IMG/VR virus record: IMGVR_UViG_3300019776_000213
Coordinates: 15,767 to 79,766 of that record
DNA length: 64,000 nucleotides
Reading direction: 5' to 3' (one strand)
From: a virus
Below the pieces are notes generated by a model, which searched no databases, was not told the origin of the DNA, and saw only the letters and a program-made list of their open reading frames with translations. Below, in pieces: positions 4,739-38,654 of this stretch. The stretch's first letter is position 1; the number at the start of each line of letters is the position of its first letter. The position numbers and the translations under genes are program-made.

Positions 4739-5440
4739 ATGGATAATACTAATAGATTTAAAGTAGGTGACACTATAAAAGTAATTAATGAAGGAAGCAC
4801 TTACCCTATTTACGAGACTTGGGCAAAGGAATATTCACTTGAGTATTGGGTATATAACAACACGCCGGAAAATAATGATGTTGGTATAATTAAAGTGTTA
4901 GCCCCTTTAATTTCTCATCCAGACATAATGCTTGCTGGAGTTTGTATTGATGGAAAGCAATACATCATTGGATTAGATGGAATTGAGCTTGTAGAGGATA
5001 ACAATACAAAAGAGTTTAATATAGGAGATATGGTTGAGATAGTAGACCCAGATAATTCCTATTCATTTTATACACAATGGGCAAAGGAACGTGGTTTATC
5101 TGGGTTTGAATATGGCAAACGTCCTATTAAAAATATGATCGGACAAATTATTGCTAGAGGATTGCACACTGAGGATATTGATGTAGTATATGGTGTTAAA
5201 GTTGGAGACTCACATTTTGTTATGGACGGAGCTGGCTTGACATTGTTAACTTGTGGAAAAGCAACTCCAGAACAAGAAAAGCGTGTAAATGATTCTCTAG
5301 GACTTGGATCAATCACATTGAACATTTCAAAAGAAGTTCTTGATAAATACAAAATAAAAGCCTACGATAAACAGAGTAACCATGTGTATCTTATGCGTAA
5401 AGCTTTGGCAGAATATGTTGGAGTAGATATTGATGAGTAA
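4739..5440 (+). CDS. protein with two internal repeats and a C-terminal ribbon-helix-helix-like segment
   Basis: FKVGDTIKVI..YETWAKE / FNIGDMVEIV..YTQWAKE repeats; ITLNISKE...LMRKALAEY. Confidence 0.65.
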   Translation: MDNTNRFKVGDTIKVINEGSTYPIYETWAKEYSLEYWVYNNTPENNDVGIIKVLAPLISHPDIMLAGVCIDGKQYIIGLDGIELVEDNNTKEFNIGDMVEIVDPDNSYSFYTQWAKERGLSGFEYGKRPIKNMIGQIIARGLHTEDIDVVYGVKVGDSHFVMDGAGLTLLTCGKATPEQEKRVNDSLGLGSITLNISKEVLDKYKIKAYDKQSNHVYLMRKALAEYVGVDIDE

Positions 5441-6606: not shown

Positions 6607-7518
6607 ATGAATAAACACGATTGGCATCATCAAGCTGTAGCTTTAGCAAATACTAAGACGTTGAGCTGGAGGGATATTGCTAAGATGGTAGGTAAGAGTA
6701 AATCTACAGTGTCAGATTACTTGCGGAAGTATTATAAGGAGTTGAGTGACGATACCGTTATGGATTGTTTGCAAATATTGAAAGAGAATATTCAAGATAC
6801 TGTAAAAGATTTAAAAGGTATTGGATTGGTAAAATATGAGAAAGTACCTGACAACTCTCGAATTCTATTTATCAGTGACATGCATATTCCATATCATCAT
6901 AAAAACTTGATTCCATTTTTAAGATCGTTGAAAGAACGCTACAATCCAACACGTATTATTTGCTTGGGTGATGATTTAGATAAGCACGCTTTATCTTTCC
7001 ATGACAGTGACCCAGATCTTATGAGTGCAGGTGACGAACTTCGTGCAGCACTCCCAGTTATTAAAGAACTACATACATTGTTTCCTGAAATGGACTTGAT
7101 TGACTCCAATCATGGAAGTATGGTATGGCGAAAAGCAAAGCATCACGGTATTCCTCGTCATTATATCAAAAGCTATAATGAAGTGCTTAACGTGGGCGAT
7201 GGTTGGGTATGGCACAATGACCTTGTGATTGATTTACCAAATGGACAACAAGTGTATGTGCATCATGGTAAAACTAAGGACGCATTGAAGGTGTCTCAAT
7301 CTATGGGAATGTCATTTGTGTGTGGGCACTTTCATGAGGATTTTAGTATTAAATATTGGGCAAACCCAAATGGATTGTATTTCGCAATGAATAGTGGATG
7401 TTTGATTGATGATGAAAGCTACGCATTTGCTTATAATAATGTGAACTTAAATCGCCCAATTATCGGCACAACATTGATTATTGACGGAGTACCAATCTTA
7501 GAGGCAATGCCTTTGTGA
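6607..7518 (+). CDS. calcineurin-like metallophosphoesterase with N-terminal HTH
   Basis: DMH, GDD, SNH, HG and GHFH motifs; SWRDIAKMVGKSKSTVSDYL helix-turn-helix. Confidence 0.85.
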   Translation: MNKHDWHHQAVALANTKTLSWRDIAKMVGKSKSTVSDYLRKYYKELSDDTVMDCLQILKENIQDTVKDLKGIGLVKYEKVPDNSRILFISDMHIPYHHKNLIPFLRSLKERYNPTRIICLGDDLDKHALSFHDSDPDLMSAGDELRAALPVIKELHTLFPEMDLIDSNHGSMVWRKAKHHGIPRHYIKSYNEVLNVGDGWVWHNDLVIDLPNGQQVYVHHGKTKDALKVSQSMGMSFVCGHFHEDFSIKYWANPNGLYFAMNSGCLIDDESYAFAYNNVNLNRPIIGTTLIIDGVPILEAMPL

Positions 7519-35000: not shown

Positions 35001-36452
35001 TTAATAAACTGTTGGAATTGGAGAGGATTGTGATAGGTTTGGTATGGCGAATGTGGGGATTGTATAAGATTTTAGCAGTGCTTTCATGGCCGACGCGCAG
35101 GAGTCCCATAAATCGTCCTTTTGCTTTCTGTTACCATCAATGAAATTTTCAAGTTCTGTAAATAAAAACTCATTCCATTCAGGGTCAACCAATACTTTTA
35201 CAAACCCTGCTTCAGCTAGAGTAAGGAACGGTTGCATCCTTTGTAATTTGCTCTTGGTTCCACCTGTCCTATCAACCCTTGCATCTACTCCTGCGTCTAC
35301 TAGTGTCTTTAAGAAAAACATTGTTGCCGCTTTAGCTGCTACACCAACGTCCTCTGGTATATATACAGGGCAATTAATTCCCAAACCTTTATCTCTTTTA
35401 TCTGTTTCAATAATAGTATCAAGAACACCATTTATTAGTTTGCGATACTTTTCAGCGTGATGTATAATATAATAACCGTCTTTAGTTTTTGACATCATGA
35501 CAGATGCAGTCCAGTCTGGGTCTGGATAAGCCTCAGAAGGTAAACTGCCTGCCAAGTCCATTGCCCTTACCGTACTTACTATGTTATCAGGTAATTCTGT
35601 AATCATCTCACACCAAGCTCGTTTAAAGTAGCCTTGTGTTTCTTGAATAGCGTGCCAGCTTCCTAAGAAAAGACGTTCTCGTTCAGTTCTTTTAAGATTT
35701 TGTAAACGGTTCAGGTATGCTGGCTGCTCACGGCACAGCACAGGATTGTCAAGAATTGTCGCAGAGATATAAGTGTAGCTTTGAGCATGTATAGTGTCTC
35801 CATATAGTGTTTCAAGTTCCTCTTTTGAGTCTGCTGTTACAGTTTCGCCATTATACGTAGCATACCATCGTTCTTTTCCAGATAATTCAGGTCGTGGAAT
35901 ACCTGTATCCATGTCTAGGTATGCTTGTACAAACTTATATAAGTAAGAAGTTCTTGATGGGTTAGCTGTGCAAATTAACTGATGTGGTGCTTTAGCTTTA
36001 GACCTGATACGTGATTCAAGGTATTTAATTTGCACTTCACTATGCCATTGAGCTTCATCGAATATTACTAATGAGTATTGTCCACCGTCGAAGTTATTAA
36101 TATCCCTGTCTGCACCACATACTTTAAACTGTACTTGCGCGCCAGATGGAAAAGTTGCAGACATCGTAGGGTGAGACTTGAACTTAGCCCCATAATCCCT
36201 CCACATATCCTGAGCTTCCATGAACAGACCACCAGCTTGAGTAAGTTGTGTACTTGTCTCACGAATAAACACTGCCCTAAAAAAGGGGTCATTAACATAT
36301 TTTAATATTAACATCAGTGCTTGGTGTGACTTGCCTGATCCAGCACCGCCGCCGAAGATGACGAAGTTAGACTTACAGTTTAAAAACATCTTATGAGCTT
36401 CTGAGGAAGGAGCTAATACCTTCCTCTTATTCTCTTTAACCTCTTTACTCAT
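35001..36452 (-). CDS. terL: terminase large subunit
   Basis: Walker A GGGAGSGKS, Walker B VIFDE, TANP, nuclease DLA..DD.WD. Confidence 0.95.
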   Translation of the reverse strand: MSKEVKENKRKVLAPSSEAHKMFLNCKSNFVIFGGGAGSGKSHQALMLILKYVNDPFFRAVFIRETSTQLTQAGGLFMEAQDMWRDYGAKFKSHPTMSATFPSGAQVQFKVCGADRDINNFDGGQYSLVIFDEAQWHSEVQIKYLESRIRSKAKAPHQLICTANPSRTSYLYKFVQAYLDMDTGIPRPELSGKERWYATYNGETVTADSKEELETLYGDTIHAQSYTYISATILDNPVLCREQPAYLNRLQNLKRTERERLFLGSWHAIQETQGYFKRAWCEMITELPDNIVSTVRAMDLAGSLPSEAYPDPDWTASVMMSKTKDGYYIIHHAEKYRKLINGVLDTIIETDKRDKGLGINCPVYIPEDVGVAAKAATMFFLKTLVDAGVDARVDRTGGTKSKLQRMQPFLTLAEAGFVKVLVDPEWNEFLFTELENFIDGNRKQKDDLWDSCASAMKALLKSYTIPTFAIPNLSQSSPIPTVY

Positions 36453-37820: not shown

Positions 37821-37866
37821 TGGCAAACGTGGTAGGATTTGAACCTACGACTTTCGGTTTTGGAGA
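37821..37866 (-). pseudogene. 3' half of tRNA-Trp(CCA)
   Basis: TCTCCAAAACCG..GTAGGTTCAAATCCTAC CACGTTT G CCA; no D-arm or 5' acceptor strand upstream. Confidence 0.75.
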
Positions 37867-37869
37867 TCA

Positions 37870-38244
37870 CATAATATTCGCTATTCGCAAATACAGAATA
37901 ATTGCCCCGTATTACTCAGTGAGAAAGTGCCGAGGACTTTAGGAATCGTCATTCCATTTCTTTTATTACAAGGGACATTTCTACACACTTATTCGGATTT
38001 CATCATCACCGTATCAAGGCATGTGTCTTCGGTGAATCGTGTAGAGGGTTTAGTTGCAGTACATAGCGTCAATTCGCACACAGATGCCTACCTGTTTTAT
38101 CCCAATAACCCATTAGCACGTAAGTGCCACCTCGAACTGCATTTTACTACATCACTCGCATGGGTAACAACTTCTGTCCATCGCACCAGTGATACAAACT
38201 AAACGGTAAGAGCCTTTCTGTTAACAGGATACGATCTAGTTTGT
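37870..38244 (-). ncRNA. candidate large structured ncRNA
   Basis: consecutive long-range helices starting at the predicted +1 of a consensus promoter; no ORF on this strand. Confidence 0.6.
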
Positions 38245-38250
38245 TTTATA

Positions 38251-38280
38251 ATTATACTACATACACCTATGATTTGTCAA
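38251..38280 (-). promoter_or_regulatory. promoter of the RNA/tRNA cluster
   Basis: TTGACA-18-TATAAT. Confidence 0.75.
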
Positions 38281-38288
38281 GTGTTATT

Positions 38289-38654
38289 TTATTCCACGTC
38301 AACAATATTATCAAAATCAATCAAAGGAGTATTATCTTCATCTTCCTCAGTCTCAAACTCGCCATCTGGAACAGAATCTTTAAAGTATTGCAACTGTTTC
38401 TCTAGACGATAAATCTTATCCATATTCTCTTCTTTAAGAACATCAAGATATTTTGTAACAAGAATCTTAGCTGCTGTCACTTTCATACTAGTAGCTTCTT
38501 GAGGGTCATTAATAGTGCTTGCAAGAAACTCTACAGAATTATTAAAATACTTTGAAAGCTTACGTCTTGCTGAATCTCTGCTCTTATTCTTAGTGATGAA
38601 GCCTCGTGCTACTTGGGTTGTAGTCACTTTAGTTGGTTGATCTGGTAGTGCCAT
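38289..38654 (-). CDS. probable terminase small subunit
   Basis: first late gene upstream of TerL; helical, KVTAAKIL motif, acidic tail. Confidence 0.55.
   Translation of the reverse strand: MALPDQPTKVTTTQVARGFITKNKSRDSARRKLSKYFNNSVEFLASTINDPQEATSMKVTAAKILVTKYLDVLKEENMDKIYRLEKQLQYFKDSVPDGEFETEEDEDNTPLIDFDNIVDVE

Follow-up and report, generated by a model that had tools for sequence, protein, structure and literature searches.

The locus described here lies on the minus strand of a phage genome represented by a complete IMG/VR virus record of 79,766 bp with direct terminal repeats. The part of the record that was analyzed, a stretch of 64,000 nt, is referred to as the window. Its large terminase shares 38% identity with those of PAK_P1- and JG004-type Pseudomonas myoviruses and 54-77% identity with those of many uncultivated phages of 80-90 kb. 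Scanning with 25 aligned TerL proteins yielded 65 related loci (denoted by L-numbers); these loci and five complete related genomes were the set against which the interval of interest and its leader were compared. No TerL relatives were found among 185,579 GTDB genomes. Closer relatives were detected neither by a TerL peptide scan, nor in IMG/VR (by junction and hairpin patterns), nor in JGI metagenomes (with the acceptor pattern of tRNA-Trp and the small ORF as queries), and blastn against 50,697 phage records gave matches to tRNA alone.

In this phage group, the region between a small ORF (possibly terS) and terL is kept as a site for tRNA arrays. The related loci carry arrays of 1-14 tRNA genes in this slot, often including tRNA-Thr, tRNA-Trp and tRNA-Gly, and HNH genes are also present at the locus in relatives. 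Among the homologues of the small ORF, that of L005 alone matched a terS PHROG, and only weakly (E = 7.6e-4). The features found in the slot of the window are listed in Table 1. The two HNH/DUF723 ORFs (208 and 67 aa) match successive parts of phrog_681, and the second overlaps the start of terL at 36452. Because the gene is split and its second ORF lies over the start region of terL, it is probably frameshifted or decaying. The terL gene of the window has no intron, but that of L003, L004 and L005, which are among the closest relatives, carries a group I intron in its 5′ part (RF00028, 62-79 bits; L003:7077-7278, L004:7088-7352, and L005:1304-1521).

Table 1. Features between the small ORF and terL, with positions in the window.
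Feature	Position	Strand	Basis or remark
Small ORF, 121 aa, possibly terS	38654-38289	minus	ORF of 123-135 aa kept at the same site in relatives
Sigma-70 type promoter, TTGACA-18-TATAAT	38280-38251	minus	12/12 consensus positions
Orphan leader (domains 1-4), ~270 nt, ORF-free, lineage-specific	38244-37975	minus	No homologue
RNAD-like module Y, 83 nt	37974-37892	minus	nhmmer profile, covariance model R1, family covariation
Palindromic box, 25 nt	37900-37876	minus	At the site of tRNA-Trp positions 1-30
tRNA-Trp(CCA) relic, tRNA positions 31-76	37866-37821	minus	Read from sequence; partial tRNA model match
tRNA-Gly(UCC), intact	37812-37737	minus	ARAGORN; Rfam tRNA, 67.5 bits
Hairpin with CU-rich loop (UCUCCUCCUCUCC)	37658-37555	minus	Read from sequence; anti-Shine-Dalgarno candidate
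Intrinsic terminator, 17-bp stem and U run	37452-37415	minus	Likely end of the ~840-nt non-coding unit
HNH/DUF723-type endonuclease, two ORFs	37315-36689 and 36648-36445	minus	phrog_681, phrog_559, Pfam DUF723
terL	36452-35001	minus	Layout

The original prediction placed a multi-domain non-coding RNA of about 375 nt at 38244-37870, transcribed ahead of the tRNAs and possibly representing a new class. Several of the features on which it drew were borne out. The TTGACA/TATAAT promoter on the minus strand is indeed perfect, and the transcribed strand contains no ORF longer than 35 aa between 38288 and 37870. A 91-aa GTG ORF on the plus strand was rejected as a gene, having no family match. The interval is richer in G+C (0.42-0.455) than its immediate flanks (0.32-0.34), as had been stated, although terL is equally G+C-rich. 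The recommended comparison with Rfam 15 returned no family in 38244-37870 even at E ≤ 10, only tRNA reached the threshold in the stretch, and ARAGORN reported no tmRNA; the reported absence of tmRNA, RNase P and intron motifs was thus confirmed. With respect to the tRNAs themselves, the claim held for one intact gene, tRNA-Gly(UCC), which is the sole functional tRNA gene of the genome, but not for tRNA-Trp(CCA), of which only a 3′ part is present.

L033 (5435-5465), L025 (4919-4947), and L007 likewise have a TTGACA promoter immediately behind the small ORF. In the window, transcription would begin near 38245-38243, and the consensus promoter suggests that the unit would be transcribed by the host sigma-70 RNA polymerase. 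Between the promoter and the terminator of Table 1, there are no other strong terminators. About 420 nt of non-coding DNA follow tRNA-Gly and hold the CU-loop hairpin and the terminator. As is general for tRNAs, tRNA-Gly would be excised by host tRNA-processing nucleases. Both the ends of the transcript and its processing are predictions from the sequence.

Module Y and its family

The 3′ part of the interval coincides with the fifth of the predicted domains (about 37977-37904) and belongs to a family of elements that we call module Y. At least nine related uncultivated phages (L006, L020, L025, L029, L031, L033, L053, L062, and others) carry the module in their tRNA arrays, on the strand of the tRNAs. 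In relatives, it is preceded by tRNA-Thr and followed by tRNA-Trp, Gly, Pro or Asn. The next tRNA begins 10-12 nt after the module in L006, L020, L025, L029 and L031, and in L062 the module exactly fills the 93-nt gap between tRNA-Met and tRNA-Asn. In the window, the tRNA-Trp relic and tRNA-Gly follow the module after 25 and 80 nt, respectively, again on the same strand.

An nhmmer profile of five relatives matched the window at 37962-37930 (E = 1.8e-4). A covariance model built from six relatives and containing no T-even sequence (R1) matched 37974-37892 with 41.8 bits (E = 1.3e-7). This score is far below the 72-114 bits of the relatives; L053 and L062 scored 30.8 and 26.7 bits, respectively.

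From its 5′ end, module Y comprises AGAAAUG, hairpin a (5 bp, loop GACG), CUNAA, and helix b, in which G and CUUCG, with a bulged U between them, pair with CGGAGC in the relatives. Next in order are GAG, helix c, a variable hairpin d, UCAA and ACA, and the module ends in an unpaired A and often CC(A). The sequence of helix c differs in every member but is always complementary. In the window copy, AGAAAUG precedes hairpin a (37955-37951 with 37946-37942, loop GACG) and CUAAA; helix b is formed by GUCCUCG (37937-37931) and CGGGGC (37909-37904) with the bulged U at 37936, and the unpaired A is at 37903. Its interior measures only about 21 nt, with helices c and d reduced, compared to 50-75 nt in relatives. 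The likeness can also be read by eye: L033 shows AAAGAAAUG, a hairpin, and then CUAAAGUCUUCGG, and the window has the same flanks around another hairpin. The arms of hairpin a are GGAAU/AUUCC in the window and GAAGG/CCUUC in L033, both complementary, so that AAAGAAAUG followed by GGAAU-GACG-AUUCC displays three compensatory pairs with respect to L033 and L025.

Covariation supports these helices throughout the family. Applied to the six relatives, RNAalifold independently gave three helices, with compensatory changes in 9 of 18 pairs. In an alignment of 12 members, 91.5% of the cells pair (39-53% with slid partners), 13 of the 18 pairs show double changes, and the covariation score was reached by none of 500 shuffles. 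All 12 members pair at all six positions of helix b. The covariation proposed as a check on the original prediction was therefore present for 37974-37892; for the 270 nt on the 5′ side, no homologues were found. The minimum free energy (MFE) fold of the window copy by itself favours another pairing for CGGGG. Judged by this comparative evidence, module Y is a real structured RNA family, and one that has no family in Rfam.

Leader, palindromic box and tRNA relic

For the other four domains, the comparison gave a different result. No similarity to the leader was found in the 65 related loci or the five whole related genomes by blastn, nhmmer, or local alignment, and the local alignment scores, those for module-bearing loci included, equaled the scores of shuffled queries. 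A decayed protein gene was rejected, as tblastn with 7,149 stop-to-stop frames of relatives returned noise only, and so was a decayed tRNA array, as the tRNA model gave no partial match in 38244-37870. Two words of 9 and 10 nt also occur in tRNA-Thr of L033, with their order exchanged, and were taken to be near chance.

The complementary arms listed for the domains are present in the sequence. The multi-domain fold that they were thought to form did not exceed chance expectation: the MFE of the 375 nt is −91.6 kcal/mol, compared to −91.0 ± 5.3 kcal/mol in dinucleotide shuffles (z = −0.11). Extending the sequence to 434 nt, so as to take in the tRNA relic, gave z = −0.84. Single domains reached z-values from −0.3 to −2.75, their borders having been chosen at complementary arms. 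RNAs that show no MFE signal can still have a functional fold. The best-supported reading of the leader is nevertheless that it is unconserved and without demonstrable conserved structure; of the predicted domains, only the fifth gained support from the comparison with relatives.

No RNA run was listed among the public sequencing runs that contain the stretch, and the contigs of such runs gave no cover over most of 37939-38262. One contig of run X1, 1,227 nt long, comes from a relative with the same layout. It matches the window at 38712-38659 and 38349-38302, where the small ORF ends, and at 37870-37757 in the tRNA part (three differences in 114 nt). Between these matches, across promoter, leader, and module, the contig measures 436 nt and the window 432 nt, with less than 80% likeness. 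A length so nearly equal despite more than 20% divergence could indicate some constraint on the leader. Promoter and leader are bracketed by an imperfect 13-nt direct repeat (38284-38296 and 37958-37970; 11 of 13 positions identical), which reads TGGAATAAAATAA and TGTAATAAAAGAA on the minus strand and may be a recombination footprint or a chance occurrence in A/T-rich DNA.

Relatives carry another leader at the corresponding site. Leader W (L025:4948-5232, with homologues in L007, L016, L018, L020, and L029) is an ORF-free segment of about 280 nt between the promoter and tRNA-Thr, with compensatory changes in 22 of its 57 predicted pairs. It displays the invariant sequence CGGCC.ACGACUUAACCG.GUGC and a long terminal covarying hairpin that exposes CCCCUCCUC; no Rfam family corresponds to it. 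Both leaders occupy the same place, i.e. a promoter after the small ORF is followed by some 270-280 nt without ORF and then by tRNAs and module Y. In contrast to leader W, which is conserved and covarying, the leader of the window gave no match to a profile of W, and sharing of 8-mers was at background level. The CU-loop hairpin of the window weakly matches L015 (1165-1240) by nhmmer, and its segment 37587-37653 is identical in a second strain present in run X1. Its homologue in relatives stands at the end of leader W, before the first tRNA, and the window has it after tRNA-Gly. The window thus has the modules of its relatives, but rearranged and joined by an orphan leader that is about as long as theirs.

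The tRNA-Trp relic retains the anticodon loop (CUCCAAA), the 3′ anticodon strand (ACCGA), the T arm, G73, and CCA, but no 5′ half; the match to the tRNA model covers the T arm only. It is 80% identical to tRNA-Trp of L015. Runs X1 and X2 contain an intact tRNA-Trp of bacterial type that agrees with 37832-37866; the divergence sets in exactly at position 31, beyond which this tRNA reads TCGG...GAGC and the window reads GTGA. A split or permuted tRNA-Trp was ruled out, since no 5′ half (neither acceptor nor anticodon 5′ strand) was found anywhere in the 79.8-kb genome.

The site of the missing half is taken by the palindromic box (TATTCTGTATTTGCGAATAGCGAAT). This box is 96% identical to L004 5967-5991, where it is embedded in otherwise unalignable non-coding DNA, and occurs also in L002 (about 6950-6975) and in L005 (about 1125-1148), there as a perfect 11-bp palindrome. 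In relatives, it is located upstream of terL or of an HNH gene. In blastn, nhmmer, and whole-genome searches of relatives with the 375 nt, the box was the sole match. It may serve as an operator or as the target of an endonuclease. The distance between helix b and tRNA position 31 is 36 nt in the window and about 40 nt in L029; the 40 nt of relatives consist of a spacer of 10-12 nt and 30 nt of tRNA. As the box lies within an interval of nearly the length seen in relatives, the missing half of tRNA-Trp was overwritten and not simply deleted. The adjacent module may itself be decaying, as it is a shortened copy without CC tail beside a destroyed tRNA.

Additional elements were noted in the tRNA slots of relatives. 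These comprise (i) a conserved inter-tRNA module X (GCACGAGUAAACCGCAUCCGGUCUUCAGAGACGG...GAAAGUGCAC), found before tRNA-Trp or before module Y (L009:4029-4090, L028:5709-5787, L029 about 400-460, and L031 about 5230-5290); (ii) some 280 nt without ORF inserted between module Y and tRNA-Gly (L033:6205-6485), with a perfect 20-bp closing helix (GAAGTAGTATTTAGCAGGAG and its exact reverse complement) and no Rfam match at E ≤ 10, an insert that could represent either another structured RNA or a mobile element of small size; and (iii) a tRNA-Trp missed by ARAGORN (L009:4090-4170; AGGCCCG...CGGGCCUGCCA, anticodon loop CUCCAAA).

Readings of the unit

In our view, the 375-nt interval is quite probably the first part of a mosaic non-coding tRNA operon of about 840 nt and not one RNA. 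The unit is best explained as an assembly of seven pieces, namely (i) the orphan leader, (ii) the RNAD-like module, (iii) the palindromic box, (iv) the tRNA-Trp relic, (v) tRNA-Gly, (vi) the CU-loop hairpin, and (vii) the terminator. As to the slot itself, the best-supported reading is that of a recombination-prone site beside homing endonuclease genes.

The recombination could have gone further. Possibly, though we think it rather unlikely, promoter and orphan leader are a recently inserted cassette or a recombination scar without any RNA function, accompanied by local damage driven by homing endonucleases. Such damage would account for the loss of tRNA-Thr and leader W and for the overwriting of tRNA-Trp. 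An HNH endonuclease adjoins the unit, relatives carry group I introns and other HNH genes here, the homology breaks off sharply at tRNA position 31, and the order of modules is shuffled with respect to relatives. The direct repeat around promoter and leader would fit the same events, but 13 nt of A/T-rich sequence may recur by chance. Moreover, the relative in run X1 keeps the layout despite its divergence, and 270 nt of useless DNA are seldom retained by phage genomes.

A further question is what module Y does among the tRNAs. A cis-acting role, in which the module is a spacer that insulates or guides the folding and nuclease processing of neighbouring tRNAs, appears doubtful to us. Its constant location inside tRNA arrays, the short and uniform distance to the next tRNA in five loci, and the exact fit into the tRNA-tRNA gap of L062 agree with such a role, but no tRNA follows the module directly in L033, L053, and L140, and the invariant GACG and AAGUC in loop and junction suggest a specific ligand. 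A comparison with phage T4 also speaks against a mere spacer. The tRNA region of T4 encodes RNAC and RNAD, which are real RNAs without an assigned role (PMC3014915, PMC9697503), and RNAD, to which module Y is probably related (see below), accumulates as a discrete RNA that is detectable late in infection (PMC9697503). Because the following tRNA starts 10-12 nt after the module in relatives, the host tRNA nucleases would there set free module Y along with the tRNAs.

Module Y, T-even RNAD and other known RNAs

The link between module Y and RNAD was found by whole-genome searches with model R1, in which T-even sequences had no part. RNAC and RNAD of T4 have been on record since the 1970s; a comparative structure model is not known for them, and neither RNA has an Rfam family. 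In the genome of T2, R1 gave a single match (25.0 bits, E = 7.2e-4), which falls exactly on rnaD (species-2 RNA). The single match in the genome of Sfk20 (21.4 bits, E = 6.6e-3) likewise is exactly rnaD. Both matches span the full length of the model, and both genomes are 164 kb in size. In the 8-kb tRNA region of T4, searched with filters off, the best match of R1 was also rnaD, with just 12.1 bits. In the reverse direction, model R2, which derives from T-even rnaD sequences that are nearly identical and was too narrow (effective sequence number 1.19), found no member of module Y but only T-arm look-alikes. A combined model R3 detected no copy in JG004, Felix O1, T5, and KVP40; its matches in T4, RB69, and others are not independent, since T-even sequences were in its training set.

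T-even RNAD and module Y share a core of AGAAA, a hairpin, and U.AAGUC-N-UCGGA ... ACGG-N′-GCAC(C). The shared strands of 12 and 8 nt carry a covarying pair, N:N′ in helix b: eight members have U:A at this place, the window and L053 have C:G, and T2 and Sfk20 have G:C. Single-sequence MFE folds of module Y from L033 and of T4 RNAD have the same topology. The genomic niche is similar as well. Like module Y, rnaD of T4 lies within a phage tRNA cluster and on the tRNA strand; it is located between tRNA-Arg and rnaC, beside a homing endonuclease gene. A separate observation concerns its neighbour, as rnaC of T4 (L147:2909-3047) ends in a T-arm and an acceptor-like strand (17.5 bits with the tRNA-Sec model). 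With RNAC ending in this way, the order RNAD-RNAC in T4 parallels that of module Y and the tRNA 3′ half in the window.

Differences between the two groups are also evident. The loop of hairpin a is GACG in module Y and the T-loop-like GUCGCUA in T-even phages. The interior measures about 75 nt in T4, within the range of the relatives and far above that of the window, and the interiors of the two groups are unalignable. Since, in addition, R2 recovered no module Y, we consider homology between module Y and T-even RNAD to be probable but not proven. That the resemblance arose by chance or convergence, leaving module Y as a clade-specific element without known relative, seems improbable to us: the low score of T4 with R1, the null result of R2, and the differences in loop and interior would be in line with it, but the sole genome-wide matches lie exactly on rnaD in two 164-kb genomes, niche and topology agree, and the shared core strands contain a covarying pair.

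In both groups, the closing helix is followed by an unpaired A, which is present in all members, and often by CC(A). The CC occurs in T4, T2, L006, L029, L031, and L033; the corresponding tail is CGA in L025, UGA in L020, and AUU in the window, whose copy therefore has no CC tail. A closing helix of 6 bp with such a 3′ end resembles the acceptor end of a tRNA and may mimic it. An acceptor-like end of this type would halt 3′ trimming and leave a stable small RNA, as described for T4 RNAD. It is conceivable, albeit quite speculative, that module Y and RNAD are one old and scattered family of tRNA-acceptor mimics acting in trans on a tRNA-handling factor. During infection, such RNAs might serve, for example, as decoys or titrators of a host tRNA-directed nuclease, or of a repair or CCA-adding enzyme, and the unit of the window would then be a minimal version under its own strong promoter.

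A reading of the entire 375 nt as one new multi-domain RNA, perhaps with the 3′ half of tRNA-Trp as a tRNA-like tail, is very improbable: it would suit an ORF-free, G+C-rich stretch directly after a perfect promoter whose length is kept in run X1, and the structured leader W at the same site in relatives implies that this phage group habitually carries long leader RNAs, but the fold is no better than that of shuffled sequence, homologues are lacking for the 5′ 270 nt, relatives carry the 3′ 83 nt by themselves among tRNAs as a separable module, and the tRNA half forms no acceptor stem with anything in the transcript.

GOLLD and ROOL, the precedents named in the original prediction, are non-coding RNAs of phages and prophages that are often found beside tRNA genes. 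These RNAs have 500-800 nt, whereas the conserved part here amounts to 83-120 nt with the rest unconserved, and neither model matched at E ≤ 10. A single large RNA of the GOLLD/ROOL kind is not supported, because the 5′ 270 nt lack both a homologue and a folding signal. The suggestion of a new class likewise has to be revised, as the structured 83-nt RNA belongs to a family that is present in the tRNA arrays of relatives and related to T-even RNAD.

Other known classes were compared and rejected. tmRNA has no match by ARAGORN or Rfam, and the 5′ end cannot pair with CACGUUUG. A group I intron within a tRNA is contradicted by the lack of any RF00028 match at E ≤ 10, although the same model finds the introns in terL of L003-L005, by the lack of a 5′ exon in the genome, and by the location of the break at position 30/31, outside the anticodon loop. 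Module Y bears a local likeness to RNase P RNA (hairpin, AAAGUC, bulged U), but the model matched neither the window nor L033, and no P2/P1 strands or ACAGAA...GGCUUA partner could be placed. HEARO/omega RNA and the HDV-like, pistol, hatchet, and twister-sister ribozymes had no Rfam match, and their anatomy does not fit. Like module Y, the theta ribozymes, minimal HDV-like ribozymes, are small structured RNAs adjoining phage tRNAs (PMC10879173). No Rfam ribozyme matched at E ≤ 10 in the window or the full-length copy of L033, in searches that used no theta-specific model. The nested double pseudoknot of HDV-like ribozymes cannot be drawn from the conserved bases of module Y, and its 5-bp hairpin with a 4-nt loop does not agree with their P3/L3.

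For phage genomes in general, these results suggest that long ORF-free stretches in tRNA slots may be mosaics of shuffled small modules, relic tRNAs, and endonuclease scars, and that such stretches should be dissected before giant RNAs are called. For RNAD, the gain is one of variation. The phages carrying RNAD and module Y are only distantly related. Diverged relatives of RNAD in unrelated uncultivated phages of about 80-90 kb supply the variation needed to define a conserved core, i.e. three covarying helices, the invariant AAGUC and ACGG.GCA, and the GACG loop. This core points to bases for mutation in T4, where genetics is easy.
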